This document shows, in pieces, positions 1,445-56,248 of a stretch of DNA of 64,000 nucleotides. The translations under genes were made by a program, and so were the position numbers. The stretch is from a virus, in the IMG/VR virus record IMGVR_UViG_3300026290_000001, one strand, 5' to 3'. The notes under the pieces were generated by a model that was not told the DNA's origin, searched no databases, and saw only the letters and a program-made list of their open reading frames with translations. Positions within the stretch are counted from its first letter, which is position 1, and every line of letters begins with the position of its first letter.

Positions 1445-2002
1445 ATGAAAAGAAAGTTTTTTATTGATTTTGATAATACAATTATAGATACAACCAACGC
1501 TTTCTGCGCAGTTTATAATGAGCTTTATTGCGATCATCCTAATTTTAAAACAGCAGAACCAGATCAAGTTAAGGTTTACAATTTTTCTGACGAATGTCCT
1601 TTAGTTACAAATGTAGAAGAAATTTTTACTCATCCATTATTCTTTCAATTTGCAGAATTTATAAATCACAATACATATGAAACTCTAGAAAAATTAAACA
1701 ATAAATATCAACTTATAGTATGTTCAATAGGTTGGCCTAAAAACTTAGCATACAAGGCACGTTGGTTGGAAGAAAAACTACCTTTTATTAAAGACTATGT
1801 TCTAATCAGTAATCCTACATGCAAAATGAATAAGAGCATTGTAAATATGGAAGGTGCAATATTTTTGGACGATATACCGTCAAACTTATATAGTTCAAAT
1901 GCTGAAAGAAAGATATTATTTGGTAAGAGATATATTTGGAATAAAGAATGGGATGGAGAATGGGTAAGAAGTTGGAGTGAAGTTGAAGGAAGGTTTTTGT
2001 AG
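1445..2002 (+). CDS. 5'(3')-deoxyribonucleotidase, HAD superfamily
   Basis: N-terminal HAD motif I FIDFDNTIID, overall similarity to NT5C-type deoxyribonucleotidases; translationally coupled to upstream kinase (stop/start overlap ..taaATG). Confidence 0.65.
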   Translation: MKRKFFIDFDNTIIDTTNAFCAVYNELYCDHPNFKTAEPDQVKVYNFSDECPLVTNVEEIFTHPLFFQFAEFINHNTYETLEKLNNKYQLIVCSIGWPKNLAYKARWLEEKLPFIKDYVLISNPTCKMNKSIVNMEGAIFLDDIPSNLYSSNAERKILFGKRYIWNKEWDGEWVRSWSEVEGRFL

Positions 2003-2054
2003 AAGAATTAAAATAGTAATATAAATATATGTTTATATAATAAACATTATTTAA

Positions 2055-2390
2055 GATTTAGTTAAATTTAGTTATAGGACAATCATAGGTGTTCATAAGT
2101 TTATATGGGAAAATGGTGAACCATATAGACCAAATTATTTAAGTGATTTATTTAAAAAGACAGTTACTGATAATAATTTACCACCAATAAGACTGCATGA
2201 TTTAAGACATACATTCGCAAGTGTAGCAAATGAATTAGGAGTTGGATTATATGATATTAGCAAAGCATTAGGTCATAGTCAAATAGGTACTACTAGCGAA
2301 ATATACACACATATGTTTGATAAGACCCATAAGAAAACCATTAGTAAAGTTGCCGATGCCTTTAAAGAAACAGAAAAAAATAAGGAATGA
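2055..2390 (+). pseudogene. 3' fragment of a tyrosine integrase (C-terminal catalytic region only, no start codon)
   Basis: Open frame without ATG translating to ...IRLHDLRHTFASVANELGVGLYDISKALGHSQIGTTSEIYTHMFDK..., the conserved R-H-x-x-R...Y box II region of phage integrases; no N-terminal domain upstream. Confidence 0.6.
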
Positions 2391-2446
2391 TATTTCTACC
2401 ATTCCTTACATTCTTTATACATTTTTTAAAGTTATCCACAGGCTAC

Positions 2447-2461
2447 AAATCCCAATATATA
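2447..2461. repeat. 15-bp motif ATCCCAATATATAGG, copy 1 (second copy at 5035-5049)
   Basis: Exact 15-mer found on both sides of the lysis cassette; each copy followed within 50 bp by ATTTGGTTCAAAT or its reverse complement. Confidence 0.4.
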
Positions 2462-2512
2462 GGCATTTGTTTTTCTGAAAATCATGATAAAAACCTTATT
2501 TGGTTCAAATTA

Positions 2513-2872
2513 TTATCTAACTTGTTCTTTCCATGCATTTCCAAATTGCTTTTTCAATGTTTTTAAAGACGATTCAATTAAAATTTGAATTTCACTTTCA
2601 GTTAAAGCAATACCTTTTTTATTCAACATTTCCGATAAAGCAATAAATGCTTCTCTATATTTAGTTTGACCATCAACATCTTTAAAACTCTTTTGAACAT
2701 ATAAAACTGCAAGTCTAGCTAATTCTTGATTAGTCTGAATTTCATGATCAATCTTTTTAAGATTCTCTATACCTAATTTTTTCTTTAAAAGTGCAATTAT
2801 AAAATATGAAAAAATCAATCCTATGATATACATAATATTTAAAAATAATTCACTAATGATTTGATTATCCAT
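2513..2872 (-). CDS. putative holin-like membrane protein (lysis cassette)
   Basis: 119 aa, single N-terminal hydrophobic helix followed by charged C-terminal region; immediately downstream of endolysin. Confidence 0.35.
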   Translation of the reverse strand: MDNQIISELFLNIMYIIGLIFSYFIIALLKKKLGIENLKKIDHEIQTNQELARLAVLYVQKSFKDVDGQTKYREAFIALSEMLNKKGIALTESEIQILIESSLKTLKKQFGNAWKEQVR

Positions 2873-2892
2873 ATGTAACCTCCCTCTACCCT

Positions 2893-3609
2893 CTACTTCT
2901 TCAATTCTTTAAGTAAATATTCAACGGCATTATCAATTAAAACAGCACATTCTATTCGTGTAATACTACTATTAGGATCTAAAATCCCATCGCCTTTACC
3001 AGAAAGTATTTTCTTCTCATATAATCTATCTGCACTTTTTGCTCCCCAATGATCTTTAGGCAAGTCTTTAAAATACTTTGACATTTCTTCAATCACCTTA
3101 CCTTTCAACAATTCCTTCTGAACTTCATTTTTAAATTTATCCCATGTCCAACCTAAATGACCTGCTCTTATTAAACGTGGACAATTTTTTCCATTCCAAT
3201 CCCAATGCTGTCTTAATGATTCTACATTTTTATTTTTAGATTTTAATAATTCTGCCACAAGTAAAACTGCATTTTCTAATGTTTTTTGGTAATTCCCACT
3301 TTCACATATTTCAATTCCTATACTACGTCTATTACCAGCACCACTTCCTCCATCTCCTGCGTGCCAAGCATTTTCAAATAAAGGAATACATTCAATTGCT
3401 TGTTTTTCATCAATGGCAATATGATAACCTGTAGAAGATGTATTTGAAGGATTGGTTAAATAATCTCTTTCATTTCTTGCAGTAGATTTTGAATTCCCTG
3501 TGTTGTGAATAGTAATATATTCCCAATCCATTTTATATTTTGGACGTTTATTAGAATTCATAGGAATGTGATCTATTACATAAGGAAAAGGTAAATTAAA
3601 TTTACTCAT
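2893..3609 (-). CDS. endolysin: N-acetylmuramoyl-L-alanine amidase (amidase_2/PGRP-like) with C-terminal SLH domain
   Basis: Catalytic region HNTGN..YHIAID..WHAGDGG..SIGIE typical of amidase_2; C-terminus FKDLPKDHWGAKSADRLYEKKILSGKGDGILDPNSSITRIECAVLI matches S-layer homology (SLH) motif. Confidence 0.75.
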   Translation of the reverse strand: MSKFNLPFPYVIDHIPMNSNKRPKYKMDWEYITIHNTGNSKSTARNERDYLTNPSNTSSTGYHIAIDEKQAIECIPLFENAWHAGDGGSGAGNRRSIGIEICESGNYQKTLENAVLLVAELLKSKNKNVESLRQHWDWNGKNCPRLIRAGHLGWTWDKFKNEVQKELLKGKVIEEMSKYFKDLPKDHWGAKSADRLYEKKILSGKGDGILDPNSSITRIECAVLIDNAVEYLLKELKK

Positions 3610-3873
3610 TTATTTTTCACCACCTTTAACTAATCTCTCAATAAAGTCCGTTCCAGCATATCCAACGGTAATAAAAACTATCATTATCAACTTGCTTGTT
3701 TCAACACCTAGTAAGGCAATAGCAGTTATAGTCCCAATAGCACAACTTACCAATAAACTTATAAATATTTGAGGTAAACTTTTATTGTTATTTACAACCA
3801 TTCGTAAGACTTGACCTGCCATTCCTAAGATTGCACCTAGCAAAATAAATGATTGAACTTCAAAAATATTCAA
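3610..3873 (-). CDS. holin
   Basis: 87 aa, two predicted TM helices, charged C-terminus, directly upstream of endolysin and translationally coupled. Confidence 0.6.
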   Translation of the reverse strand: MNIFEVQSFILLGAILGMAGQVLRMVVNNNKSLPQIFISLLVSCAIGTITAIALLGVETSKLIMIVFITVGYAGTDFIERLVKGGEK

Positions 3874-3895
3874 TTTACCACCTCAGAATTAAAAA

Positions 3896-4192
3896 TTAAA
3901 TACTAGGAATATTGTCATTATCATCCAAAGTATTTATATCATTTATATTATTACTATAATCAGGTTTATCAGGCCAAGTATTATGTTTACTTAAATTTTC
4001 AAATAATGATTTTACACAATAAATTAATGTCACTCCGATTATTTGAATGACGATTTTTTCTGAAAGATTTTCAGCAATTTGTTCTCTTCCTAGAAAGGCC
4101 AATAAATAAGAAAGATAAACCCAAATTACGCTGTTAATCATTAATAAATAAACTATTCTTTTGCTAAATTCATCTATGTTAAATATTTTCAT
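3896..4192 (-). CDS. small membrane protein (lysis cassette associated)
   Basis: 98 aa with hydrophobic segments; position in lysis cluster. Confidence 0.3.
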   Translation of the reverse strand: MKIFNIDEFSKRIVYLLMINSVIWVYLSYLLAFLGREQIAENLSEKIVIQIIGVTLIYCVKSLFENLSKHNTWPDKPDYSNNINDINTLDDNDNIPSI

Positions 4193-4203
4193 AACTCACC
4201 TTC

Positions 4204-4428
4204 TCACAAACGTATTTGTTGATGACAACTTGGACAATGTTCAATAGGTGAAGCAGGATAAGTTATTATATAATAAATAACCCATAAAATTACTAATAAC
4301 CAAAACAATGGAGAACGAATAATAGTTGATAATATATTCCAAACTAAAAACAAGATACCTTGAATAAAAGATGTAGTTATATCTGTTATGTTATTAAAAA
4401 ATATATCTACTTTGTTTTTATATTTCAT
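4204..4428 (-). CDS. small membrane protein
   Basis: 74 aa, strongly hydrophobic core, C-terminal CPSC motif. Confidence 0.3.
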   Translation of the reverse strand: MKYKNKVDIFFNNITDITTSFIQGILFLVWNILSTIIRSPLFWLLVILWVIYYIITYPASPIEHCPSCHQQIRL

Positions 4429-4435
4429 AATCTAC

Positions 4436-5017
4436 CTACTTTAAAACCATACTTATCACTGCACCAAATCCCATAGACATTGCAATTATAAATAAATTCT
4501 TTAAAATATCTGATAATTTTATTTTATTATCACCACTTACTTCATCAATCTTCTTGCTTAATTTCTCCACACTAACTTCTGTACTGTTCATTCTATTGCT
4601 TAGTACGTCTAATGAATTACTGATCTTCGCTTGATTTTCACTAATTTCAGCAATCAATTTATCTCTTTTAATTCCGTCTTCTCTCTGTAATTTTGTGAGC
4701 AATTGGAGTTCGGACAAAACACTTGTAATATCATATATTTTGTTTGTTTGGCTTTCCAAATCATCTATACGGTGATTTGCCACCTTTATTTTTTCATCAA
4801 CATTCTTAAATACTTCGGCACAAATTTTTGGTTGTTCACATTCTTGATTTATGACCAATTCACAACACCATCCAATCTTTGTATTCATTCCTCCTTTGCG
4901 GTATAATGGGTACAAGGTAATTAATTTGACCGCAAAATTAATTACCATAACGAATAAGGCAGGATACCTATTTTTATCCTGCCTTATTTTTATTTTATTA
5001 AATTTAAAAAATCTCAA
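4436..5017 (-). CDS. XhlA-like coiled-coil membrane protein (lysis associated)
   Basis: 193 aa; central coiled-coil-like region and C-terminal TM helix (LFIIAMSMGFGAVISMVL) as in hemolysin XhlA-type phage lysis proteins. Confidence 0.4.
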   Translation of the reverse strand: MRFFKFNKIKIRQDKNRYPALFVMVINFAVKLITLYPLYRKGGMNTKIGWCCELVINQECEQPKICAEVFKNVDEKIKVANHRIDDLESQTNKIYDITSVLSELQLLTKLQREDGIKRDKLIAEISENQAKISNSLDVLSNRMNSTEVSVEKLSKKIDEVSGDNKIKLSDILKNLFIIAMSMGFGAVISMVLK

Positions 5018-5034
5018 AAAATCATTTTTAAGAA

Positions 5035-5049
5035 TCCCAATATATAGGG
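5035..5049. repeat. 15-bp motif ATCCCAATATATAGG, copy 2; forms hairpin ATCCC-AATATATA-GGGAT
   Basis: Exact match to 2447-2461; lies just downstream of the recombinase gene 5113-6117. Confidence 0.4.
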
Positions 5050-5112
5050 ATTTCTAAACCCGAAAATTTGAACCAAATTAAAGATTTGTTATGATACAAA
5101 ATAAAAACATAA

Positions 5113-6117
5113 TTATTGATAGAAATATTGAGTATAACTTTGTTGCTTGTGTTCAAACGTTTGTTTTGCGTAAATGCCCGTAGTTTGAATATCATCATGA
5201 CCTAAAAGTTCTTGTAATACCGACATTGGACAACCGTTATTTAGCATCAAGGTTGCGAAAGTATGTCTGAGCATATGGGGATGAGTTCTCTTGTCAAGCC
5301 CTGCACGTTTACCTATTGCTGCTATTTCTCGTTGAATACCTCGATTGCTTAATCTTCTATATTCCTGCCGTTCTGTTACAAATAATGCTTCACAGTCATC
5401 CTTACGACTTTCAAGATATTTTTTAAGGTAAATTGCAGCTCTAGCAGAATAGAATACAATTCGCTCTTTGTTTCCTTTGCCTAATACCTTAATCGTCCGA
5501 TTTGATTGTCCTATATCATCTTTATTTAGTGCCGATATTTCAGATAATCGACAACCTGTTGAATACATAATTTCAGTTAATGCTTTTTCTCGCAAAGTGA
5601 AACAACTTTCACGGAATAGTTCCAATTCTTCAATTGTTAATGCCTTTGCCATTGCTTTTCCCACTTTATAAGGTTTAATTCTAATCATCGGATTTTCTTC
5701 AATAATCTGTTCCTCACAAAGCCATTCAAAGAAACTGCGAAGTACTGAGCGAATTGTCTCAACAGTACTTTTAGCATTTACTGTTGGGTCGCTTTCCCGA
5801 TCATCCAGATAGTTAATTATGTCCTGCTTGGTTATTTCATTTACTGGTTTTTCTTCGGTTCTATCGGTAAATATTTTAAGATGAAGTCGATAATTATCAA
5901 TAGTTATTGGACTTAATCCTTGCCGTTTTTTATCCTTCAAAAACAGTTTTATGTTTTTCCGCAAATTATAATATTCTGGATCGCTGTTTTGTTTTATAAC
6001 TCTGTATTCATCAAGAATGGAGGCTAATTGATTTTTAGCCTCCATCTTATTCATGCCTTTTTCTATGATTCCATCTACAATTTTAGCATATAGCTCATAA
6101 TTGAGATTAGGGTGCAT
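5113..6117 (-). CDS. tyrosine recombinase (XerC/XerD-like integrase family)
   Basis: C-terminal catalytic motifs ...GCRLSEISAL..., HPHMLRHTFATLML, LGHDDIQTTGIYA; N-terminal SAM-like core-binding domain. Confidence 0.8.
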   Translation of the reverse strand: MHPNLNYELYAKIVDGIIEKGMNKMEAKNQLASILDEYRVIKQNSDPEYYNLRKNIKLFLKDKKRQGLSPITIDNYRLHLKIFTDRTEEKPVNEITKQDIINYLDDRESDPTVNAKSTVETIRSVLRSFFEWLCEEQIIEENPMIRIKPYKVGKAMAKALTIEELELFRESCFTLREKALTEIMYSTGCRLSEISALNKDDIGQSNRTIKVLGKGNKERIVFYSARAAIYLKKYLESRKDDCEALFVTERQEYRRLSNRGIQREIAAIGKRAGLDKRTHPHMLRHTFATLMLNNGCPMSVLQELLGHDDIQTTGIYAKQTFEHKQQSYTQYFYQ

Positions 6118-6385
6118 AGAATACCTCCTTTTATTTAGTTGTTACTGAAGGTTCATAGTCTACTGCGAAGTAACTTCTTAATACACATTTGCGAAGTCAG
6201 AAAACTTTTTAACCAATATCAAACAACCCCGACAATTTCTCTAACTTTTTCCCTATACATATTAGGCACAAAATCAATTATAATTCGCCCACTTTCTACT
6301 GCATATACCCACATTCCTAATATAGCTTCACTCATATCATTCATCTCCTTTTAGATTAAACAATTCGGTTCTTAACATATCGATT

Positions 6386-6691: not shown

Positions 6692-7843
6692 TTAAAAATA
6701 CACGAGGCGAGCGCCGATAACCGAATACTTTTCAGACTCCGAATAACCCACATGCAGCCGAAACGCCCCCGCCTTATCCGCAGCCGACCAATCACCACCG
6801 AAACGCGGCAAGCGCGAAACATTCAGAACCGCGGAATCGGGATAATGCGTGCTTTCGCTTCCGTTTGCTGTTTTGACGATAAAACCCGTTTCCGTACCAC
6901 CTTGTATGTCGTCTATGTAACCGACTATATTCGTTGTCGCACCCTGTCCGTAATTTGTATATCCAGAACCAATATCGTTAAAACTTTCATTGCCGATTAG
7001 GATGTTTCGGTCTGCATCACTAAATAATCCGTCAATCCAATAGTAAATATTACCCCAAAAATCTTCTATGCCACAAAATTTTAATTGTTGTTTTCCTGTA
7101 GTTTCACCATAGAACATACCTTTAGCATTTGTAGCACCCGTATTAACTTTGGCACTATTCCCATCGACATAACCTCTGCCTAAAGCAGTTTGCCAATCCC
7201 TACTCTTAAACATCACCGTACCTAAGACTTGCAACATTAAAAGTTGAAAATAAGCCATTTGGTCATAACCACTGCCATTCGCCTGTGCAATAGTTCTAAA
7301 TGCACCGATAGTTTCATAAGCGGTTGTTATTTTTCCGCTTAAACTTCTTAATTTAGAACCGTCAGAATATCCTAAATAAGCTGAAATGTAACACTTGGCT
7401 TTTTCGGTTGTACCCCTCATATGTGCTAAACATTTATACCCACTATCTACCTTTGCATTAGCATATCTTACATACAAGTCAGTCCCAATGGTTTCAAATT
7501 TCCACCAAATCTTAGGAAATTCAATCATTACGTCACCATCTGCACCACTTGTAATGTCTGCATTTGTCCCGTCAATTTTTTTAGTATAATCGTTTGGATT
7601 TAGATAGTATTGCACCACTCCATTTTTAAGTAAACATGGTTTAATCTGATTAAATGGAAACTTGTCTTGCCAACTACCATAAGAAAAATTGCCATTATTT
7701 CCTTGGGCTGGAGTAAAACCTATTGCATTATCTGTATAGGCTAAAGCAGTTTCGGGGTTGCTATTTGTAGTATCAATTTTGATGCCATATATTTTAGGTG
7801 GTGATTTTACTGGTTTTCTTTTCCTAATTAATGCCTCACCCAT
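6692..7843 (-). CDS. tail fibre protein, distal part; 3' third is GC-rich
   Basis: 383 aa, Gly/Asn/Thr-rich, contiguous with upstream fibre ORF; 3' segment about 6700-6960 has markedly higher GC than the genome. Confidence 0.5.
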   Translation of the reverse strand: MGEALIRKRKPVKSPPKIYGIKIDTTNSNPETALAYTDNAIGFTPAQGNNGNFSYGSWQDKFPFNQIKPCLLKNGVVQYYLNPNDYTKKIDGTNADITSGADGDVMIEFPKIWWKFETIGTDLYVRYANAKVDSGYKCLAHMRGTTEKAKCYISAYLGYSDGSKLRSLSGKITTAYETIGAFRTIAQANGSGYDQMAYFQLLMLQVLGTVMFKSRDWQTALGRGYVDGNSAKVNTGATNAKGMFYGETTGKQQLKFCGIEDFWGNIYYWIDGLFSDADRNILIGNESFNDIGSGYTNYGQGATTNIVGYIDDIQGGTETGFIVKTANGSESTHYPDSAVLNVSRLPRFGGDWSAADKAGAFRLHVGYSESEKYSVIGARLVYF

Positions 7844-8686
7844 TTACCTCACCACCTTTAGCTGAATTGGCAAACTAACTTCAGGTTTATCCATCGCATA
7901 TAATGTTATAGAATTATTAGCAGTTGTTACACGATAAATTTTACCCCACTCATTTACTCGTTCTTTATCTGTAGCAAATGTGCCACTCATTACTACGTCA
8001 ACTATAGGATTGTCATTTGACGATATTCCAGTTACCGTTTGCGTTTTCGTATATGGGGCTTCTGTACCTGTCCAAGTAGTATCAAGTGTTGTCGTAAGCG
8101 TAGCGTGATATACGTGTCCTAATTTACTTATTGTCGCACCATCTGCCAGATGGTTAGCAAACTTTTTCCCAACCCCACTAACCAAAGGTCTTTTATCGAC
8201 AATTATATTTACAGTTTTATCCGCATTTGTACTAATAGTACCAATTAATAGACTTCCATCTGTAATTGTTCCATCTATACTACTAGCAAAATTTCCATCA
8301 TTTTTAAGATATATAGTATAGGTTATACTGGCCGATACTGGATTAATAGTAAAAGTTGTATCAGATGTTTTAGTTATAGTATTTATTGTATTTCCACTAA
8401 ATGTTTCACCAGTACCACTAGCAATAACTATACTTAATGTATCTGTACCACTCGTATAAAATGCAGATTTTATTCTAAATGGACTATCCAATTCTAATGA
8501 ATTTAATAAAAATCTCGCATCTTTCCATGTTGCTCCTAAATCTCTAGGATCAGTACCACCTAAAGTAACATTTGCATCATCAGCAACATGGATAATATCT
8601 AAACCACTATATTTATTTCTAATTTCTGCTACTTGCTCATCTGTATGTATAGCAAATACTTTGCTATTTTTAATTACACAAATCAT
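7844..8686 (-). CDS. tail fibre protein (shares a module with 8706-10469)
   Basis: Segment TFTINPVSASITYTIYLKNDGNF...LLIGTISTNADKTVNIIVDKRPLVSGVG is paralogous to a region of the upstream gene. Confidence 0.5.
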   Translation of the reverse strand: MICVIKNSKVFAIHTDEQVAEIRNKYSGLDIIHVADDANVTLGGTDPRDLGATWKDARFLLNSLELDSPFRIKSAFYTSGTDTLSIVIASGTGETFSGNTINTITKTSDTTFTINPVSASITYTIYLKNDGNFASSIDGTITDGSLLIGTISTNADKTVNIIVDKRPLVSGVGKKFANHLADGATISKLGHVYHATLTTTLDTTWTGTEAPYTKTQTVTGISSNDNPIVDVVMSGTFATDKERVNEWGKIYRVTTANNSITLYAMDKPEVSLPIQLKVVR

Positions 8687-8705: not shown

Positions 8706-10469
8706 TTACACTATTATCCATGAACCTTTATTTCCCTCAGAATTAGGTTCAGGAGAGAAAATAGGACTGCCACTATAATTAGAACAACGTACATATCCAT
8801 TGTTATATGCAAATATATCAATTAAACCTGCATCACCAACATTAGAATTTGAAGCAAATAAAGAACCTTCTTCACAACAATCTATATTGTATTCCACATT
8901 GTTTTTTGCAATAATTCCCGAACTAAATCCTTTTCCACCATTATTAACTGTTAATCCTGATTTATTTCCACAAACACATATATTTTCTGCCATCATACCC
9001 CCACCAGTAGAATCATAAGCACCTTTTTCAGAATTACCATTTGCTATACAATTATTTATATAAATCCCTGCGAAATTGGAACATTCATAACCATTTTCAT
9101 TATTGGAAGATGCTGTATATGGTGCAGTAATACCTGCTCTGTTAGTTACAAAAAAACCAGATTTAAAACCAGATACTCCAACATTTGTACCACAAGTTAT
9201 GCTTGCGCCTGTTGTTGATAATATTCCATAATTAGTACTAGCATTAGAACCAATAATTGCAACATTATTTAATAATCCTAATTCAGAACGGTCAGCAACA
9301 ATACCATTACAATTTGTAAATTTTAACGTTGTAGTTAAAACAACAAAATCTCCACCCGTTAATGCAACAGCAGGGAATGGAGTACCTTGAAAAGTATTTT
9401 TAACCGTTACTACGTTTCCATTTATATTTATAATTTCATACATTCCACGTAAAACTTCATGATTACCTGTGCCTGTAGTATTTTTTATAATAGCATATTG
9501 TCCTACTTGCATACCTACTGCACTAGCAACTGTTATAGGTACAGACCAATTTCCAGCAGTATCAGAAACACTACCTACGTTTGAAACGGTTGTGGCAATA
9601 GGAGTAGCACCAATTATTCTTATATTAGAACCATTAACATGATTTATTTTAAGTTGAGAAGTATGTTCATACATTTCTGTTAATAAAGAAATAGTTACAG
9701 TAGTTGAACTAGTTATACTAGCAGTTTTTATACTATCTAAAGCATTTGGTATTGTAGTAAAATCACATCCAGTAGAGCCAACAGTTATAGTTTTATTGGC
9801 ATCTATAATAGTATCTGTTAAATGTTTAATAAATTCACTACCTACAGCACTAACTAAAGGTCTTTTATCAGTAATTGTATTTATAGATTTATCTGCATTG
9901 GTACTAATTGTTCCTATTAAAATACTTCCATTTGGAATACTACCATTTGTACTTTTATCAAAATTACCATCATTCTTTAAATAAATATTATAGGTCACGC
10001 TAGCACTTACTGGATTAATATTAAAAGTAGTATCAGATGTTTTTGTAATAGTGTTTAAAGTAGTACTATTAAAACTTTCACCTGAACCCGAAGTAATTAT
10101 TATTGATAAAGTATCTGTTACTGAATTATATTCAGCAGATTTTATCTGAAACGGATACCCATATACATCTTCTACATTACTTTTTAAACTATCATGATCA
10201 TATGCTGTAAATAATCTTCCTATTATCGTTCCATTACTCCATGTCTGTGCTGTCCCTTGAAATCCCCTAGTTACACCAACCAAACTACTACCACTTTTAT
10301 CTGTATATAAAATAGTTTCTGCATTATTACCAGTTCCTATAGTAGCAAGATTAGGTGCATTGGGAAAAACTGAAATATCAGTTACGGGGATGGTAGTTGC
10401 AATACTATTTATATCAGAAGAAAGTGTTGTAAGAGGGGAGTTAATTTTAGCATTATACATTGTTTCCAT
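8706..10469 (-). CDS. tailspike/tail fibre with parallel beta-helix-like C-terminal domain
   Basis: 587 aa; repetitive G/N/S/T-rich segments with spaced Cys/Asn/Gly typical of right-handed beta-helix depolymerases; shared N-terminal module with 7844-8686. Confidence 0.5.
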   Translation of the reverse strand: METMYNAKINSPLTTLSSDINSIATTIPVTDISVFPNAPNLATIGTGNNAETILYTDKSGSSLVGVTRGFQGTAQTWSNGTIIGRLFTAYDHDSLKSNVEDVYGYPFQIKSAEYNSVTDTLSIIITSGSGESFNSTTLNTITKTSDTTFNINPVSASVTYNIYLKNDGNFDKSTNGSIPNGSILIGTISTNADKSINTITDKRPLVSAVGSEFIKHLTDTIIDANKTITVGSTGCDFTTIPNALDSIKTASITSSTTVTISLLTEMYEHTSQLKINHVNGSNIRIIGATPIATTVSNVGSVSDTAGNWSVPITVASAVGMQVGQYAIIKNTTGTGNHEVLRGMYEIININGNVVTVKNTFQGTPFPAVALTGGDFVVLTTTLKFTNCNGIVADRSELGLLNNVAIIGSNASTNYGILSTTGASITCGTNVGVSGFKSGFFVTNRAGITAPYTASSNNENGYECSNFAGIYINNCIANGNSEKGAYDSTGGGMMAENICVCGNKSGLTVNNGGKGFSSGIIAKNNVEYNIDCCEEGSLFASNSNVGDAGLIDIFAYNNGYVRCSNYSGSPIFSPEPNSEGNKGSWIIV

Positions 10470-13104: not shown

Positions 13105-14397
13105 TCAGTCATGAGATGAATTGGCTCTGTTCTGTTCATATATAATCCATGATTTTCTTGCATTAATTCTTTGCATGTTAGATATTTTCGGTGTCTTCAT
13201 ACCTCTGGGTGCATTACTAAAATCTATTTTTTCACCATCTATACCCATAAGAATGGCATAACCCGTAGACATTCTACCTTTAATAAAATATTCATTACCT
13301 ATATACCTTACTTTATCAAACTTCCTAAATCCTTCTATTTTACCTGTAGGTATCTTCTGATGACTTCTTACTCCTTTTGCCTGTTGGTAATCGCCTTTAG
13401 GGATACACTTTTTTAATACAGCTTTTTCAGTTTTAAAGCTTACATCAATTAACCCTATATCTTCAATATTATTTAAACAGGCAATAGCTACAGCATCGTA
13501 GTAATGCTCTTTTGGTAATCCCATTAGCTGTCTATGTTCTTTGGTAATAAATCCAAAGGTTTCTTTTGCATTTGGTAGCTGTCTTAATAATTGTTGTCTT
13601 ATACTATTCATCTGTGTTGTGTGTTTTAATTGTCCTTTAATTTTACCATTCTTCTTTAATTTAATTCCTCCTTTGTGCAAACTATTATGACAAGTTTTAC
13701 AAAGTGTAATTAAATTTTCTGCATCATCTGAGCCACCATTTTTTCTAAAAACTATATGATGTACCTCTAATCTGCTGTCTTTACTTTTTCCTTTGCAATA
13801 CTGGCAAATATATTTATCTCTACTTAATACATAAGCTTTAGTATTAGCAAATCCATAATTAGTTCCTTTTTGATAAAGCCATTTATTACTTAATACTGCT
13901 GGATTTTTTAAAGCATGTGGGTCAAATGTTGCTGTTTCTATTATTATATTTGTAATGGGCATTATTGATTTTGCAAAATCAATTTCTTTTAAGTGTGAAT
14001 TAATTTTACTTGTCATTGTAGGAGAAAATCTATCTTTTTTAATGCTGTTTTTCCTATTATTAAATCTAGGTTCCCTATATCTAGTTTTCCTATTCCTTCT
14101 AGTTCTCCTATATTTAGCTCTTTTGTCCATTTTGTCAGATATATCATTTCTAATTTCTACTTCTGATATATAATACACTTCATTTTCGTCATTTGCTACT
14201 GCACTTCCTATTTTACTACTACCAGTATCAATTCCTAAAGTTAAATCTTGTGTATAGTCTGTAGCATGATATAGTAATTTAATTGTAAATGGAGTTCTTC
14301 TTATGCATTTTGCTTTACCATCTTTTAACAATAATCTTGCTATTGCTGGTTTACAAGGCATTAAAGGACTCCCATCTTCATTAATTACATAAACCAT
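13105..14397 (-). CDS. iscB: IscB, OMEGA-family RNA-guided nuclease (PLMP domain, split RuvC, HNH)
   Basis: N-terminus VYVINEDGSPLMPCKPAIARLLLKDGKAKCIRRTPFTIKL (PLMP domain); RuvC-I LGIDTGSSKIGSAV; Arg-rich bridge helix RRTRRNRKTRYREPRFNNRK; RuvC-II ETATFD; HNH CQYCKGKS...LEVHHIVFRKNGGSDDAENLITLCKTCHNSLH; RuvC-III HYYDAVAIA; domain order exactly as in described IscB proteins. Confidence 0.85.
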   Translation of the reverse strand: MVYVINEDGSPLMPCKPAIARLLLKDGKAKCIRRTPFTIKLLYHATDYTQDLTLGIDTGSSKIGSAVANDENEVYYISEVEIRNDISDKMDKRAKYRRTRRNRKTRYREPRFNNRKNSIKKDRFSPTMTSKINSHLKEIDFAKSIMPITNIIIETATFDPHALKNPAVLSNKWLYQKGTNYGFANTKAYVLSRDKYICQYCKGKSKDSRLEVHHIVFRKNGGSDDAENLITLCKTCHNSLHKGGIKLKKNGKIKGQLKHTTQMNSIRQQLLRQLPNAKETFGFITKEHRQLMGLPKEHYYDAVAIACLNNIEDIGLIDVSFKTEKAVLKKCIPKGDYQQAKGVRSHQKIPTGKIEGFRKFDKVRYIGNEYFIKGRMSTGYAILMGIDGEKIDFSNAPRGMKTPKISNMQRINARKSWIIYEQNRANSSHD

Positions 14398-14681
14398 AAA
14401 ATCAAATCCTTTCGGATAAATACTCTGCTTAAAAGCAGGTTATGCGTATCTATATACTATTACCATATATAGAATTCGTCCTCATCTCGACAATGATAAA
14501 ATAGCTTATATGTATATCACACCGAGCCTTACCCTCCAACTCTACTTAGTGATATACGATAGAGCAATGGTCTGATGCGTCAACCAAAGGTATCATAACT
14601 ATTCTATCGTAGTATAAATTTCTCTATACTAAGTCTGGTGAACTTAGACTTTAGAAGCCTCCGACTTTAGTCGGGGGTAGT
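14398..14681 (-). ncRNA. candidate omega RNA of IscB (structured 5' region; guide expected at the high-coordinate end)
   Basis: 284-bp non-coding gap directly upstream of iscB with higher GC than surroundings and several stems readable by eye (CCTCCGACT/AGTCGGGGG, TACGATAGAG/CTATTCTATCGTA, AGTCT..AGACT, CTGCTT..AAGCAG). Confidence 0.45.
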
Positions 14682-14927
14682 TCACTCTATTTCAGGATTG
14701 ATAGATAAATCATCTTTGCTTGTACTATTTACATTAGATAAATTATCTTCATTGGACAAATCATCATTAATAATTTGACTTAATTCGTCTATTTTAGAAC
14801 TTAATTTGATAATCTCTATCTGATACATATTATTTTGTAAACATAAAGTGACTACATCTAAGGGCAAATTACTATTGTTTATTAACTCTGCCAGTTTAAT
14901 ATTAAAATCACTTATAATAAAAATCAC
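14682..14927 (-). CDS. hypothetical protein
   Basis: 81-aa ORF upstream of IscB locus. Confidence 0.25.
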   Translation of the reverse strand: MIFIISDFNIKLAELINNSNLPLDVVTLCLQNNMYQIEIIKLSSKIDELSQIINDDLSNEDNLSNVNSTSKDDLSINPEIE

Positions 14928-48380: not shown

Positions 48381-49202
48381 TTAAGGATTTTCTATTACTT
48401 TAGCAGGTCTATATTTATCTTTATAATTATGCCATGCTTTTCTCTGCCATTCTAATTGTTTTTCCCTCCAACAACTCCTACAAAATTTTCTTCTATTAGA
48501 TGTTGCTTTTATTAATTTTCCACATTCATTACAATTAATAATTTTTGGATTACCATTATACAAATCAAAGTAATATCCAATATTATCAAAGGTAGTTATT
48601 TCAAAAACTACTATTCCATTTTCCTTGATATTATTCATAAATATAAGATGAATTTTCCCCTTCATTCTAACATCAACCAATCCTAAAATCTCTAATTCAT
48701 TAATTATGGCATTTATTTTATACTCATTATTAGATATTTTAGACACTTCTAATATCTCATTATATGTATTTTGATTACCACTTATATAATTATATTTTAA
48801 AACATTTCCGTATTTTAATTTATGTATTTCTTTATATATCTTCATTTCTACTAACAAAACAAACAGAATTTTTTTATAATTATACTCTATATCTAAATTA
48901 TTAATGTATTCAATTTCTTCGTTTGTTATAGGAATACTATCAATAATTATTAAAGGGTTATCTTTTCTACCTCCTTTTTTGAGTGCAGTATTAATTTGTT
49001 TGAAATATAAAACATCATTGAAATTAACTATATACTTCTTGCAAAATTCATATAATTTTTCTTTTCGTTGTTTAGGTTTTATGCCAAGTTTTTTCCAATA
49101 TTTAACTAACAAAACCAATTCATAATTATGACGTTCAGTTAAAAATCCATGTTGTTCAATTTGTTTTGCATATTCTTCTTCATTGTATTTTTCTTGAATC
49201 AA
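48381..49202 (-). CDS. hypothetical protein with C-terminal zinc ribbon
   Basis: 273 aa; C-terminal CNECGK...CRSC motif; translationally coupled to upstream 934-aa gene. Confidence 0.3.
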   Translation of the reverse strand: MIQEKYNEEEYAKQIEQHGFLTERHNYELVLLVKYWKKLGIKPKQRKEKLYEFCKKYIVNFNDVLYFKQINTALKKGGRKDNPLIIIDSIPITNEEIEYINNLDIEYNYKKILFVLLVEMKIYKEIHKLKYGNVLKYNYISGNQNTYNEILEVSKISNNEYKINAIINELEILGLVDVRMKGKIHLIFMNNIKENGIVVFEITTFDNIGYYFDLYNGNPKIINCNECGKLIKATSNRRKFCRSCWREKQLEWQRKAWHNYKDKYRPAKVIENP

Positions 49203-52003
49203 ATAATCACTTCTTCCAACTTGTACTTTTTATTCAAGTAAACAATACCCCCTTCTTTATTAGGCATGGGAAAAAATATAGATTCTTTTGTGTTTGATTT
49301 AATATTTGAAAAAATATACTTACCAAAGGAATTCCATAAAATATCTTTGTTTGAACTTTTATATTCACAATAAAATATTTCAACTAAATAATTAGTTAAT
49401 TCATATGCGTATGAACATATTTCAAACATTCTACTTTTAAAGTCATCATAAATATTATTTACAATACGATCAGATTCTTCATCAAATTGCTCTTTGTTGG
49501 CATTTTGATTAATACCCATAGTATTCAAGTCTTTTAATTCTTTCATAAATTTTTTATACTCATTTAATACTTTCTGATAGGTTTCTTGATTTTTAGGAAT
49601 ATCATTTTTCATATATAATTTATACAAATCACCTATTTTACTTGTTTTTAATTTACTTTTAATATCAAAATCAACATTTTCAATATGTTTACACAATAAA
49701 TTCATTACACTGTCACTATCAATTACTGGTAAAAATCTATAATATGCATCCACAAAAGACTGTTCTTTTTCATTACAATTTTCCTTAATTAATAGTTCAT
49801 TTAATGTTAATCCAAATTTTTGCTGACTAGACAAATCGTTACTTTTGACATATTTTTTATATTTATTATAGGTATTTTTATAAAGATGAATAAAAAAATA
49901 TGGATGTTTATCCAATAATATTTTATTTAAAAATTCCTTTTCTTTTTTAACTTTTTCATCATCATCTTTATAAATTTTTTGCCTTTCAATCCAAATCTTA
50001 GGAATGCCCTTAACTTTTTTACCTATTTTTGCTTTATCAATTTGAGCAGATTGAAGTTTCGTACACATTTTTAATCTATTTATCAATGTTTGATATTCCA
50101 AACTTTCTTTATTAAAAAGAGGGAGTAAGGCATAAGCACTTGTACTTTTATTTGTTATAGAGCCTATAGTGGAACCAAAGGCGAAAAGATCAGCTTTATA
50201 TAAATCTTCTTCTGTAAATACCATAGATATAGATTTAGGTGCATCATAAACCACTGGCAACTCATCTTGAAATATTGAATTTAATATTGTTTGATCAGAA
50301 GTAGTTGCAATAATATCAAAATCCCAATCACTTCCAGCCCAATTAAGAGTTTCATAACCATGTATATTTACTATTACTCCACCATCATCACAATACTTAT
50401 ACCATTTATTTAATTTATCATGATTAATTAAATTTAATTTCAAATGTTCTGATTTATAAGTAAGTGGTGCTCTCATTGAATCTACGATACAAACATTTTT
50501 TTTATTCCAATAATTACAATAATACTCTTTTTCTTTAAGCAATCCAGTAACCTTTTGCCCGCAAATATGTTGCATCATAGCATAGGGATCACTTACTAAA
50601 ACCTGAAAATTTCCATCTAAAATAATTTCACCAAGACAACCTCTTTTTATGATATTGTTAGTATATTTATAAACTTTATCTCTGATATATTTATCATTTT
50701 TTAATTCATGATTAACTATCAAACTTTTTAACCAATAATTATTACTATACTTTAAAAAATATTGAATACTTTCTTGAGTTATATTTTCTCCTAATAAAAA
50801 TAATAACGTATAATATATATTATCAAAATTGACCCCAGTAACCCAATCAACAAAAGGAGTACAAATCTTCTTAATATCTTTTTGGTTTAAATCCAAAGTC
50901 TGTAAAAATTGATAATTCATTTTTAATATATCATTAGGTTTTTTAGGAGAAGTTAAACTAACACCCCATTTTAAATCATTCATCTCGCAATTATGTATAT
51001 ATTCTTCTAAACTACCAAACGCATTCCAAAGTTTAAATTGACTTTCCGATACAACCACATCGATATCCCTTAAATCAACCTGTATTGGATTATTATTGTC
51101 TTTGTATATAGTATTTATTATATAATTACCATGATTTTCATTTTCACAATATTCATCTATATCAAATACGCAGAGCATCCCTTTCAGAAAATTCTGCCTG
51201 ACACAAAATTGACCAGGAATATAATCTAATCCTAATTCTTCTGCCCATTCTTTAGCTTTACTTGGTTTAATCAACCCTTGACCATCAAACCTATTAAAAC
51301 TCAACTCTACTTCTTTAATTACAATATCATCATCTTTATTTTCTTCTGTTTCAGTTACAAAATTAACATTAACTTTTTGCTTAATTTCATAATCAGGCAC
51401 TACACAAAATTTAGGCGTACTTACTATTTTTGTAGATGAACCCGACAATCCTTTATATGCATTGTATTTAGAAGGGCATAGGGGTATATTTTTATCTCTA
51501 TTATTATCTAAAATTTCATTAAGTTGATTTAAAATTTTCTCGTTGCAAAATACCACTGTTGAAACTCTGGATTGACTGGCAGATGATGATAATCTAAAAT
51601 ACCGTTCAGAATTTAATAATAATCCATTTTTAAATAAATAATTATAATGTGAGTTATGTTCCATTACTATAGTTATGTACTCAGGAATAAAAAGCATATC
51701 TAAAATATTATTTTGTAATTCTATTATTCTACTTGAGTTTTCCTTTGAATATATTTGTTTTTTTAACCTATCTCTTTCTTTATACCATTGTTCAAGTTGT
51801 ATATAATTAATTTCTTTACCAGTTATTTTTCTAATACTTCTAAGAATTTGATTGTCTGATAAAGCAATTAACTCACCATTTTGTTTAGCTTGTTGTGGAG
51901 TTAATTGTATATCATACCCATATTCTTTAAGCCTAGATGATTTAAATTTCATAGTATATAATTGTCTATTTATCAATATTTTTTGCCTCCAATAAATCTT
52001 CAT
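49199..52003 (-). CDS. large hypothetical protein (replication/recombination module candidate)
   Basis: 934-aa ORF overlapping both neighbours (operon); no unambiguous catalytic motif recognised by eye. Confidence 0.4.
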   Translation of the reverse strand: MKIYWRQKILINRQLYTMKFKSSRLKEYGYDIQLTPQQAKQNGELIALSDNQILRSIRKITGKEINYIQLEQWYKERDRLKKQIYSKENSSRIIELQNNILDMLFIPEYITIVMEHNSHYNYLFKNGLLLNSERYFRLSSSASQSRVSTVVFCNEKILNQLNEILDNNRDKNIPLCPSKYNAYKGLSGSSTKIVSTPKFCVVPDYEIKQKVNVNFVTETEENKDDDIVIKEVELSFNRFDGQGLIKPSKAKEWAEELGLDYIPGQFCVRQNFLKGMLCVFDIDEYCENENHGNYIINTIYKDNNNPIQVDLRDIDVVVSESQFKLWNAFGSLEEYIHNCEMNDLKWGVSLTSPKKPNDILKMNYQFLQTLDLNQKDIKKICTPFVDWVTGVNFDNIYYTLLFLLGENITQESIQYFLKYSNNYWLKSLIVNHELKNDKYIRDKVYKYTNNIIKRGCLGEIILDGNFQVLVSDPYAMMQHICGQKVTGLLKEKEYYCNYWNKKNVCIVDSMRAPLTYKSEHLKLNLINHDKLNKWYKYCDDGGVIVNIHGYETLNWAGSDWDFDIIATTSDQTILNSIFQDELPVVYDAPKSISMVFTEEDLYKADLFAFGSTIGSITNKSTSAYALLPLFNKESLEYQTLINRLKMCTKLQSAQIDKAKIGKKVKGIPKIWIERQKIYKDDDEKVKKEKEFLNKILLDKHPYFFIHLYKNTYNKYKKYVKSNDLSSQQKFGLTLNELLIKENCNEKEQSFVDAYYRFLPVIDSDSVMNLLCKHIENVDFDIKSKLKTSKIGDLYKLYMKNDIPKNQETYQKVLNEYKKFMKELKDLNTMGINQNANKEQFDEESDRIVNNIYDDFKSRMFEICSYAYELTNYLVEIFYCEYKSSNKDILWNSFGKYIFSNIKSNTKESIFFPMPNKEGGIVYLNKKYKLEEVII

Positions 52004-54186: not shown

Positions 54187-55014
54187 CTATTGATTAGATA
54201 GTAATTTTTCTTTATGTTCCCTTACACGTTTAATTGCTAAATTAAAATATTGATCATGTGGTTCACTCAGACTCCATTCAAAACCTATGTAATTTCTTTC
54301 AGTATTTAAACAAGCTATCGCTGTTGTGCCTGAACCTATGCAATTATCTAAGACTAAATCTCCTTCATTTGTATATGTTTTAATTAGATATTCAAATAAT
54401 TTTACTGGTTTTTGAGTGGGGTGTGGTAATTTTTCTTTAGAATTTGAATTAACTATAGGATTATATATTACAGTTGATGGATTTTTTAATTTTGCATTGT
54501 ACACATCATAACTTCTTCCAGCATAATCTGTATTAAAAACAATTTCATTATCTTTTCTTTTTGAGATAGAACTTCTAAAATTAATATTATTATTTTCTTG
54601 CATTTGTTTCATTCTTTCGCTTTTACGTTCTATCATTTGTCTATTATATGTATATTTATTTTTTGCAAATATTAATATATTTTCATGATATTTTAAATGT
54701 CTATATTTTGCATTTGCAAAATTACTCGCTCTATCTTTTTCCCATATTAGTTCTTCTTTAAACCAATCAATATTACTACAAATTAATTTGCTTGTAAATG
54801 GTTGACTTGCTGTTAATACTATAGCACCATTATCTTTTATAATTCTTTTATACTGTTCCCAAAGTTTATCAAAAGAAATTAAACTATCCCATTTTGCTAT
54901 TGTAGTTCCATAAGGTAGATCACATAAAATCATATCTATACTTTTATCAGGTAATAAACACATACCATTTTCACCAATACAATCTTCGTTATAAATAGTA
55001 TTTAATTTAATCAA
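54187..55014 (-). CDS. DNA methyltransferase (N6-adenine/N4-cytosine amino-MTase)
   Basis: Motif IV-like ILCDLPYGTT near N-terminus and SAM-binding LVLDNCIGSGTTAIA near C-terminus. Confidence 0.75.
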   Translation of the reverse strand: MIKLNTIYNEDCIGENGMCLLPDKSIDMILCDLPYGTTIAKWDSLISFDKLWEQYKRIIKDNGAIVLTASQPFTSKLICSNIDWFKEELIWEKDRASNFANAKYRHLKYHENILIFAKNKYTYNRQMIERKSERMKQMQENNNINFRSSISKRKDNEIVFNTDYAGRSYDVYNAKLKNPSTVIYNPIVNSNSKEKLPHPTQKPVKLFEYLIKTYTNEGDLVLDNCIGSGTTAIACLNTERNYIGFEWSLSEPHDQYFNLAIKRVREHKEKLLSNQ

Positions 55015-55089
55015 TTATGTATTATTCCTCCTATATTTATATTACTAAAATAATACTACGACTCAAAATTAAAAAATTATTTCTTACTC

Positions 55090-55413
55090 TTAATCTTTTT
55101 TCTCTTTCTTTTCCTTAGATTTTTTTGCCTTTTGTAATCTTTCTCCCATTTCTTTCTTTTGAGCCTCAGTTAACTTTTTCTTTTTGGTTGGTGCTCTAAA
55201 TGAAATCAACTTCTTATCACAAACAAATTCTTTTCCCACTAATTCATTATCTTCATCAAATTGATCACTAACATGCTGATATGATTCAGGATACTGTTTA
55301 CAAAGTTTATCCAGTTTGTTTAAATCTGCACGAATAAAAGTTATTATTTGTGCTTTTTTAGAATCTTCATCAATCCCTACGCAAGTATAACGCTCCATTT
55401 TTTCTAATGCCAT
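55090..55413 (-). CDS. hypothetical protein with Lys-rich C-terminal tail
   Basis: 107 aa, C-terminus KKKKLTEAQKKEMGERLQKAKKSKEKKEKKD. Confidence 0.3.
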   Translation of the reverse strand: MALEKMERYTCVGIDEDSKKAQIITFIRADLNKLDKLCKQYPESYQHVSDQFDEDNELVGKEFVCDKKLISFRAPTKKKKLTEAQKKEMGERLQKAKKSKEKKEKKD

Positions 55414-55454
55414 ATGTATAAATTCCTTCTTTCATTTTTATATTAATAAAATAA

Positions 55455-56204
55455 TTAAAATTCCACTAATCTATTTTTCGCTATTTCACAATATTTTTCT
55501 TCTAATTCAATTCCAATACATTTACGTTTAAGATTTCGTGCCGCCAATAAAGTTGTTCCTGAACCACAGGTAAAATCTAAAATAAGATCGTTTTCATTTG
55601 TGTATGTATTAATTAAATATTCCATTAATTCTAATGGTTTTTGTGTAGGATGAAATAAATTATTATTTGGATTTGCAAAATTTAATATATTTTTAGGATA
55701 ACCTTTAGCATTACTATTTCCAAAATGCTTTTCTTTCCCAAAAGTATATTCTCCATCCACTTTATTTTCTCTACTTGGTCTATTATTATTAAATTCTCCA
55801 TAAATTAACCCTTGCGGATTATAAATGCATTGATTTTTATAAAAAACTAAAACATCTTCTATTGCTCTCATTGGTTGTTTTTTAGCATTTAAATGACCAC
55901 TTGGTTTAGTTTTTATCCATTTCCAATCATATTTATATTCTTTAATATTACTAATTCTTAAAAAACTACTAAAAGGTTCTCCTCCAAACAATAATGTAGG
56001 TGTTGTATTTTTTGTTAATTTATGTAATCTATCCCACATGTCATTAAATTTGATAATTTCATCCCATTTACATTTAGTAGTACCGTATGGTGGGTCAGTA
56101 ATTATTGCATCAAATTTAATACCTTTCTCAATAATCTTATCCATTACCTCTAAACAATCACCTTGAAATAATCTTATGTATTCGTCTTTATAGTATAATT
56201 TCAA
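55455..56204 (-). CDS. DNA methyltransferase (amino-MTase), paralog of 56249-57034
   Basis: IITDPPYGTT motif and LDFTCGSGTTLLAA SAM-binding motif; N- and C-termini near-identical to neighbour, central region differs. Confidence 0.8.
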   Translation of the reverse strand: MKLYYKDEYIRLFQGDCLEVMDKIIEKGIKFDAIITDPPYGTTKCKWDEIIKFNDMWDRLHKLTKNTTPTLLFGGEPFSSFLRISNIKEYKYDWKWIKTKPSGHLNAKKQPMRAIEDVLVFYKNQCIYNPQGLIYGEFNNNRPSRENKVDGEYTFGKEKHFGNSNAKGYPKNILNFANPNNNLFHPTQKPLELMEYLINTYTNENDLILDFTCGSGTTLLAARNLKRKCIGIELEEKYCEIAKNRLVEF

Positions 56205-56248
56205 TTTATGTAAATATATCTCCTTTCATTTTTATATTAATAAAATAA

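Follow-up and report, generated by a model that had tools for sequence, protein, structure and literature searches.

Paired intergenic elements around the lysis cassette of an SPbeta-like digester phage are probably regulatory sequences at module boundaries rather than recombination sites

The lysis locus and its paired repeats

The DNA considered here is a 64,000-nt viral stretch (IMG/VR record IMGVR_UViG_3300026290_000001, referred to in full as the window) in which a lysis cassette lies between two copies of a short intergenic repeat, with the remnant of an integrase gene on one side and an intact recombinase gene on the other. The phage, known from anaerobic-digester metagenomes (contigs of 135,317 and 138,134 bp), has a genome of at least 135 kb, of which the window covers about half; the gene content of the window includes a 2,014-aa tape-measure protein, a terminase and a portal protein. 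The phage belongs to an SPbeta-like family of ~135-139 kb genomes from anaerobic digesters with DNA of ~28% G+C. It encodes a YomF_N domain protein and a YonO-like two-barrel RNA polymerase (49199-52003, minus strand; 934 aa, DWDFD motif) that shares 54.6% identity with a Bacillus phage BUCT082 protein and also finds matches in SPbeta-group, Clostridium c-st and Enterocloster phages. At the DNA level, no close relatives were found among cultured phages. Contigs used for comparison are given by number (L160 and so on) where they have to be told apart.

The lysis cassette is encoded on the minus strand. It begins with a ~140-aa coiled-coil protein with a C-terminal transmembrane segment (4436-4858), which heads the lysis cassettes of relatives as well and whose homologues are mostly 140 aa long. 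This gene is followed by two small membrane open reading frames (ORFs) of 98 and 74 aa (3896-4428), an 87-aa membrane protein with a weak holin-like match below the Pfam cutoff (3610-3873), an endolysin with Amidase_2 and SLH domains (2893-3609) and, as the last gene, a holin of the Phage_holin_6_1/LLH type (2513-2872). A predicted intrinsic terminator, consisting of a hairpin and T-run (2380-2409, minus strand; z -2.83), lies at the end of the lysis operon, where it overlaps the stop codon of the integrase remnant on the opposite strand. The frame of this remnant is open from 2055 to 2390 and has no start codon; it matches positions 97-170 of the 172 in Pfam PF00589, and homology to intact integrases begins at 2105, such that 2105-2390 represents the last ~95 codons of a lambda-type tyrosine integrase that is 383 aa long when intact. 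Upstream of the cassette, and also on the minus strand, is rec (5113-6117), an intact gene for a XerA/XerC/XerD-like tyrosine recombinase of 334 aa in which the catalytic R-K-HxxR-H-Y residues are present. The initial annotation of this DNA, which had named a lysis cassette, a start-less 3' integrase fragment and an intact recombinase, was therefore right about all three. A second XerA/XerC/XerD-like recombinase of 292 aa, with all catalytic residues present, is encoded at 59714-60592 (minus strand), where a block of minus-strand genes switches to a block of plus-strand genes. This gives the phage a complement of two intact Xer-like genes and one integrase remnant.

An exact 15-mer, ATCCCAATATATAGG, was located by a mismatch search of the window at 2449-2463 and 5034-5048, on the plus strand in both cases. 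Identity between the two copies, which we call element A, reaches 16 nt (AATCCCAATATATAGG, 2448-2463 and 5033-5048, direct orientation), and direct similarity continues over 35 nt at 80% (2448-2482 versus 5033-5067). Identical 15-bp repeats had been reported at 2447-2461 and 5035-5049; the repeats are real and those coordinates are off by 1-2 nt. A second motif had been reported beside each 15-mer, in direct or reverse-complement form, and this corresponds to the 13-mer ATTTGGTTCAAAT at 2498-2510 (plus strand) and 5066-5078 (minus strand). The 13-mer pair is embedded in an inverted similarity of 31 nt at 77% (2481-2511 versus 5065-5095), which we call element B. The left site thus reads A then B and the right site A then inverted B (B').

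Element A is a near-palindrome of ~21 bp, AAAT(C/G)CCTATATATTGGGATT. Its left copy (2448-2468, minus strand, C-type) reads AAATGCCTATATATTGGGATT and holds TATATT and GGGA in an imperfect stem-loop; the right copy (5033-5053, minus strand, G-type) reads AAATCCCTATATATTGGGATT, and TATAT(A/T)GGGATT can be read from both of its strands. The imperfect palindrome centred on the left copy is ACAAATCCC-AATATATA-GGCATTTGT and that centred on the right copy is AGAATCCC-AATATATA-GGGATTTCT. At the left site, B (2481-2511, minus strand) lies upstream of A and in tandem with it, and has the promoter-like pattern TTGAAC-N16-CATGAT with a self-palindrome, AATTTGAACCAAAT, over the putative -35 box. At the right site, B' (5065-5095, plus strand) has the pattern TTGAAC-N16-TG-n-TATGAT, stands back-to-back with A and is aimed at the 3' end of rec.

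The likely start of the first cassette gene (4858) is ~175 nt downstream of the right copy of A. Between the two are two strong hairpins (4912-4998; z -10.2), which on the minus strand form a structured 5' leader of the lysis cassette and whose stems are retained through compensatory changes in L179, L208 and L211. On the plus strand, a TATAAT (4902-4907) precedes these hairpins and a T-run terminator (4952-4989) ends them, so that a ~80-nt antisense RNA against the leader and ribosome-binding site could be made from 4902-4989. A search of Rfam over 2000-6300, at the gathering threshold and at E<=1, returned nothing relevant.

Recurrence of the elements in related contigs

Window statistics are by themselves weak. 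In first-order Markov shuffles, 64 kb contained ~55 exact pairs of 15-mers, and 12% of the shuffles had a 15-mer pair accompanied within 80 nt by a 13-mer pair; the repeat is not established from the window only. Neither a mismatch search nor a profile search revealed further copies of A or B in the window, and a 99.5-kb contig of the same phage has just the two copies of A. We consider the repeat real because both elements recur, in register, at homologous positions of related contigs (L170, L179, L184, L188, L190, L206 and L214-217). Right-type sites (L170, L179, L184) keep A and B' and left-type sites (L188, L190, L206, L214-217) keep B and A. The left A is identical in L188, L206 and L214-217; the right A is preserved in L170, L179 and L184 and half-deleted in L206. 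In L190 the left-type unit stands between two unrelated genes and is followed by the same 19-nt leader, a ribosome-binding site and a 124-aa gene. Homologues of B read TTGAAT-N16-TGTTATGAT in L190 and TTGAAC-N16-TATAAT in L170, the latter with a perfect -10 hexamer; a TG-extended -10 is found in the right copy of the window and in L190. When left and right copies, or the window and L190, are compared, it is the -35 and -10 hexamers and the core of A that are conserved and the spacers that vary.

Element A is also dispersed well beyond these sites. Metagenome contigs scanned with AATCCCAATATATAGGSATTT yielded 35 loci, 10 of which represent a single marine coding context. The 21-nt element was found in ~24 contigs from digesters, landfills or fermentations, 21 of which are non-redundant; its intergenic surroundings differ widely among them, and around half of the contigs have genes in common with the phage family. 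Besides those of the window, about 20 intergenic contexts of A are known from related digester-phage contigs, with or without the recombinase and usually 12-170 nt ahead of a ribosome-binding site. In the orientation AAATSCCTATATATTGGGATT (TATATTGGGA), a co-oriented ORF with a Shine-Dalgarno sequence lies downstream of A in 15 of 27 occurrences, mostly at a distance of 24-170 nt, and only two have such an ORF in the opposite orientation. Scanning IMG/VR with the 15-mer gave ~100 matches, mostly within coding regions of unrelated phages, and these are chance or coding matches. When IMG/VR was scanned with rec, the integrase fragment, the amidase and the 140-aa protein, all matches were to the same phage or to distant relatives that lack the motif. 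We also noted an unrelated 98-kb IMG/VR contig (L023 5648-5662, L085 604-618) that carries a 23-nt version of the motif, AAATCCCAATATATAGGCATCCA, at two intergenic positions; the copies are inverted and 20 kb apart, and no similarity of that phage to the window was detected by tblastx.

Recombinases, attachment sites and module edges

Direct repeats with an identical 16-bp core around a discrete 2.58-kb module, beside an intact recombinase gene, invite the suggestion that A is the core site of the adjacent Xer-like recombinase and that the lysis cassette is an excisable module, comparable to pdif modules or integron cassettes, that inserts at other A sites. The structure of A, with 7-bp inverted arms around an AT-rich centre of 6-8 bp, is like that of tyrosine-recombinase core sites; furthermore, the motif is dispersed between gene modules in relatives and one deletion endpoint (in L206) lies at the centre of A. 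We nevertheless regard this scenario as quite improbable given the following: (i) no excision, circle, deletion or inversion junctions were found in more than 40 assembled contigs of this phage, which showed only parental flanks, and no hybrid left/right flanks occurred among 135 motif hits; (ii) homology breaks are mostly outside the core of A; (iii) A and B' occur without rec in L170 and L179; (iv) the rec allele of L184 is only 43% identical and yet has an identical A beside it, and beside the rec of L218, at 77% identity to the L184 allele, the position of A is taken by another palindrome, AAACGCC-TAGATTTC-GGCGTTT, that looks like a terminator; (v) A is missing from the window at the place homologous to one that bears it in L198 and (vi) repeats of this kind are lacking from cultured phages whose rec occupies the same slot. 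These phages are Clostridium phage phiCp-D (L202) and Terrisporobacter phage TPELB_ph1 (L203), whose rec homologues are 36-37% identical and lie, co-oriented, between tail genes and holin/endolysin; no comparable repeats were found near rec in either. One of these two phages also carries ParM and the other a second integrase.

With pdif modules and integron attC cassettes the locus has in common a gene module set between short dyad sites and a Xer-like recombinase close by; the differences are that the A copies are direct, that no mobility signature was seen and that the site does not co-vary with the recombinase. The sites of pdif modules are in inverted orientation, and a dif/pdif site has 28 bp in an 11-6-11 arrangement with conserved XerC/XerD arms. 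Compared by eye with the arms of the Firmicutes (B. subtilis) dif site, A shows no resemblance.

A check for junction variants had been suggested in the initial annotation; none were seen in the contigs and motif hits counted above. Contigs with an exact rec (24) or an exact holin (17) have either the arrangement of the window or, in L160 and L164, a module replacement only. In its slot, rec is an optional gene that varies in allele. In L206 it is reduced to its first 73 codons (666-896), the deletion ending inside A.

The inverted 13-mers raise a related question, namely whether the cassette is invertible, with the recombinase flipping it between B and B' as a lysis on/off switch. An exact inverted 13-mer, within its 31-nt similarity of 77%, does bracket the cassette, and a recombinase gene is adjacent. 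The 13-mer is, however, itself palindromic (ATTTG-GTT-CAAAT), such that its orientation is set by the three central bases only, and the cassette has the same orientation relative to both flanks in all contigs that bear it. As B and B' moreover each resemble an ordinary promoter, we consider a lysis switch of this kind highly improbable.

An att-like site, or disruption of an integrase gene at the repeats, had also been proposed. By following homologues of the gene that heads the cassette, we obtained relatives with the ancestral state. The cassette of the window recurs in L206 (90.4% identity over window positions 5042-2105), where it is followed by B and A, the terminator and, convergent with these, an intact integrase of 383 aa; intact 383-aa integrases are likewise present in L214-217 (99% identical) and in L218-220 (74% identical; a 139-kb contig), and the genome architecture of both of these groups is that of the window. 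On one strand these relatives encode NrdD, NrdG, dUTPase, then DNMK and NT5C, and further on a HTH_17 excisionase (xis), a 400-nt gap and the integrase (int); on the converging strand are holin-LLH, the lysis genes, rec and tail fibres. The attP of this integrase family is the 400-nt gap between xis and int, which in L214 and L218 contains a tRNA 3'-end core, GAGTTCGACTCCCCCCGCCTCCACCA, and five AGGTAGACA arm repeats. The tRNA core is absent from the window, and the window has no AGGTAGACA repeats beyond chance. Since homology to the intact relatives starts at 2105 and there is no attP in the window, xis, attP and ~290 codons of int have been deleted, and the AT-rich junction at 2003-2104 now stands in the place of xis, attP and the 5' three-quarters of int. 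Truncation of the integrase gene thus occurred at 2105 and not at the repeats, and the site sought near the repeats is the one lost with xis. L164 has a further deletion of 188 nt inside the integrase remnant.

These findings leave next to no room for the possibility that the decayed integrase left its attP behind as the left repeat, with the right copy as a secondary site. In its favor, the left site has the lysis cassette on one side and the 3' end of int on the other, a slot where attP is often located, and in other relatives (L208, L209) tRNA-derived cores are found in that slot. Where the integrase is intact, however, at 99% and at 74% identity, attP is between xis and int, and in the 74% relative A is absent from the spacer between int and holin. 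We found no tRNA-like sequence in A and no arm-type repeats around A or B. The comparison with host attB candidates that went with the proposal of an att-like site gave, in a scan of bacterial genome contigs with the 21-mer, one unrelated match in Aquimarina and no attB-like copy. The copy number of A is also unlike that of an attP, with two copies 2.6 kb apart here and ~20 other contexts in the family. What A shares with lambda-type attP/attB sites is a pair of imperfect inverted arms, a short AT-rich centre and adjoining recombinase genes; it differs in being multi-copy, in having neither arm repeats nor a bacterial counterpart and in that the genuine attP has an entirely different sequence.

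A temperate SPbeta-like lineage of ~139 kb has probably become a lytic-only derivative in the window through the loss of xis, attP and most of int, and a sister lineage retained int and truncated its Xer-like gene. The decay is reciprocal when L206 and the window are compared: L206 keeps the 383-aa integrase with its Xer-like gene cut to 73 N-terminal codons, and the window keeps the Xer-like gene with its integrase cut to ~95 C-terminal codons.

Homology to relatives breaks at or near the elements. At the left site the break is at 2509/2510 in L188, with a different holin beyond. At the right site, breaks were mapped at 5042 in L206 (inside A), at 5060/5061 in L160 (other sequence and IS200/IS605 beyond), at 5086/5087 in L179 and L184 (within B') and at 5105 in L170 (8 nt short of the rec stop codon at 5113). 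The conserved elements coincide, then, with edges of swapped modules. This agrees in part with the initial annotation, which invoked an exchange of modules; the exchange looks like ordinary mosaicism at conserved intergenic sequence and not like the work of a recombinase. IS200/IS605 elements with tnpA and tnpB have inserted in relatives at L160 1200-3001 and L060 3795-5661, the former just downstream of rec and B', at the place that A occupies in the window.

Promoter-like, stem-loop and possible operator features

We favor the possibility, and consider it probable, that A and B are regulatory promoter/stem-loop (or operator) elements marking module boundaries and not recombination sites. When A is read as TATATTGGGA, a putative -10 box, TATATT, stands directly before a GGGA discriminator within a stem-loop of 6-7 bp. 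There is precedent for the importance of such a sequence in that GGGA immediately downstream of the -10 box strengthens sigma-A/sigma-70 promoter complexes (PMC3526302). Element B has the promoter-like hexamers described above, with its -35 box falling in the palindrome AATTTG-GTT-CAAATT. A conserved regulatory element had been the fallback reading of the initial annotation, and the evidence favors it; at the level of the phage family we find A at many unrelated intergenic sites and no junction variants, a picture that had been linked there to a general regulatory motif.

According to our working model, the repeats would be two copies of a composite cis-regulatory region common to the phage family, in which A would serve as a promoter core, able also to act as a weak attenuator hairpin or protein-binding site, and B as a sigma-A-type promoter (TTGAAC-N16-(TGn)TATGAT) with its -35 box inside a small palindrome. 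At the right site, A, facing the lysis cassette, would most likely drive or control it via the long structured leader, and B' would fire away from the cassette. The left site would be a second copy of the control region, with B and then A in tandem; this arrangement may drive the downstream gene in relatives such as L190 and, in the lineage of the window, would run only into the terminator and the decayed integrase. Because it is the genes in between that vary and the elements that stay conserved, the latter coincide with the limits of modules that can be exchanged (recombinase alleles, different holins and endolysins, IS605 insertions), with exchange probably proceeding via ordinary homologous or illegitimate recombination. 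A role of the elements themselves in module exchange is something that we infer.

There is precedent for elements of this kind in the PeSLs (promoter-early stem-loops) of T4-type phages, in which recombination between copies gives rise to indels and mini-circles (Arbiol et al. 2010, PMC2839356). A PeSL is a short, repeated intergenic sequence in which a stem-loop can overlap the -10 or -35 box of a sigma-70-type promoter; PeSLs lie between a stop codon and the next Shine-Dalgarno sequence or start codon and are found beside the most plastic genes, with indel and replacement boundaries that coincide with them (PMC2839356; Comeau et al. 2014, PMC4122927). A and B resemble them in having stem-loops on promoter-like boxes, in their intergenic position and repetition and in the plasticity and breakpoints around them. 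The differences are that PeSLs belong to a T4-type group and not to SPbeta-like digester phages, that there are ~50 copies in RB49/phi1 as against two here, and that PeSLs have polyG/polyC stems in place of short AT-rich ones; in addition, A has a poor -35 box.

Several observations weigh against a promoter role or limit what can be concluded about it. The promoter activity of both elements is what we infer from sequence. The -35 box of A is poor (TTTTCA/TTTTCG at 16-nt spacing) and there is no TG extension; its hairpins are weak (-9.7 kcal/mol, z -2.1, and, for the left copy, -9.0 kcal/mol, z -2.75); and a generic sigma-70 scan of this AT-rich region found 26 promoter-like sites as against 26.7 in shuffles. 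The hits to A were ascertained with the 21-mer pattern and are not suited to judging the conservation of columns inside it. Two copies in at least 99.5 kb of the phage are few for a general promoter, and in relatives (L208-L212) A is not always upstream of the lysis cassette. Nor is its orientation relative to genes universal: in L200 it overlaps the stop codon of a co-directional gene, and dUTPase is preceded by an A of the other orientation in L218-220 and L173, where a degenerate second copy, tandem or inverted, accompanies it. G-type A, in which TATAT(A/T)GGGATT is present on both strands, could reconcile the opposite-facing loci L200, L218 and L173 with a promoter. The conserved flanks AAATSCC/GGGATT exceed the needs of a sigma-A promoter, which makes a dedicated binding protein plausible, and the dyad of A, with its 7-bp arms and 6-8 bp centre, fits a tyrosine-recombinase core site as well.

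Alternatively, A may be purely an operator for a phage regulator, similar to SPBRE/MrpR, with the promoter-like letters incidental and one of the two Xer-like proteins as the potential regulator. SPBRE is a 15-bp repeated element in ten SPbeta promoter regions that is bound by MrpR/YopR, a repressor with a tyrosine-recombinase fold (Kohm et al. 2023, PMC10516654). As with SPBRE, a conserved motif of ~15-21 bp is repeated in promoter regions of a large SPbeta-type phage, although the likeness is one of description, the SPBRE sequence being shown only as a figure in PMC10516654. An operator would account for a dispersed and strongly conserved ~21-bp dyad in promoter-proximal intergenic positions, for the tandem or inverted degenerate second copies at L173, L182, L185/L198 and L218 and for an orientation that is not strict; the family is related to SPbeta (YonO-like RNA polymerase, YomF_N domain) and the window encodes two Xer-like proteins. 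However, a sequence search of the PDB with both proteins did not return MrpR (PDB 8A0A), and both, with all catalytic residues kept, look catalytically intact, unlike the catalytically dead repressor of an SPBRE/MrpR system. The rec alleles and the site do not co-vary, most contigs with A have no rec nearby, the ~15 bp between half-site centres would be an unusual spacing for helix-turn-helix dimers, and the phage has only two copies of A. We therefore view a pure operator as a minority possibility. That A is a target of one or both of the intact Xer-like recombinases (rec and/or the 59714-60592 product) seems improbable to us. If it were true, the protein would either repress at the dispersed sites, as an 'active-enzyme' counterpart of the SPbeta MrpR-SPBRE system, or drive a pdif-like system in which gene modules including the lysis cassette are shuffled among large Clostridia-type phages.

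We also considered whether A might be a promoter of the YonO-like polymerase and dropped the idea, as the main late promoter region is without an A-like motif. The promoters of YonO-type RNA polymerases were still undefined in a 2017 study (PMC5467207), and no consensus for them is given in the literature. Likenesses of A to CodY and LexA boxes and to sigma-54 and ECF promoters were unconvincing by eye. A mini-ORF in C-type A (MPIYWDL*, three contexts) was likewise dropped, its frame being lost in G-type copies and in other contexts.

The regulatory reading of A and B that we favor removes a tempting misreading of this locus: the presence of direct repeats and two recombinase genes does not mean that this lysis cassette moves or inverts. 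An intergenic motif and putative companion promoter that extend through the family could be used for annotating control regions and module boundaries in uncultured digester phages, and the two elements are concrete candidates for promoter or operator experiments in the group of phages with a YonO-type RNA polymerase.

Another conserved intergenic control element appears to be present upstream of rec. A stretch of 35-48 nt at 6143-6190, with two ACTTCGCA direct repeats, is 96-100% identical in L184, where it precedes the 43%-identical rec allele, and to the same extent in L208, where it precedes a Peptidase_C1 endolysin that takes the place of rec.

Additional features of the window deserve mention. 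An IscB-type ORF (13105-14685, minus strand; 430 aa, RRXRR and HNH domains) is accompanied by a HEARO/omega RNA (RF02033, 121.7 bits, 14475-14685). In L164 this element, at 98.7% identity, is directly beside a different endolysin (Peptidase_C1 and SPOR), which indicates that the element or its surroundings have moved. At 6701-6900, the 3' end of a tail-fibre-like ORF (6692-7843, minus strand), G+C content jumps to 51-59% against the ~28% background. In this it is like the variable region in a target gene of a diversity-generating retroelement; no template repeat for it turned up in the window. Two adjacent tail-fibre-like genes (280 and 587 aa) have in common a segment of ~300 nt (8176-8473 and 9848-10145, minus strand; 76% identity) that is a contig break point in several assemblies. 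Finally, three tandem paralogues of a DNA methyltransferase gene (275, 249 and 261 aa) are located at 54187-57034 on the minus strand.

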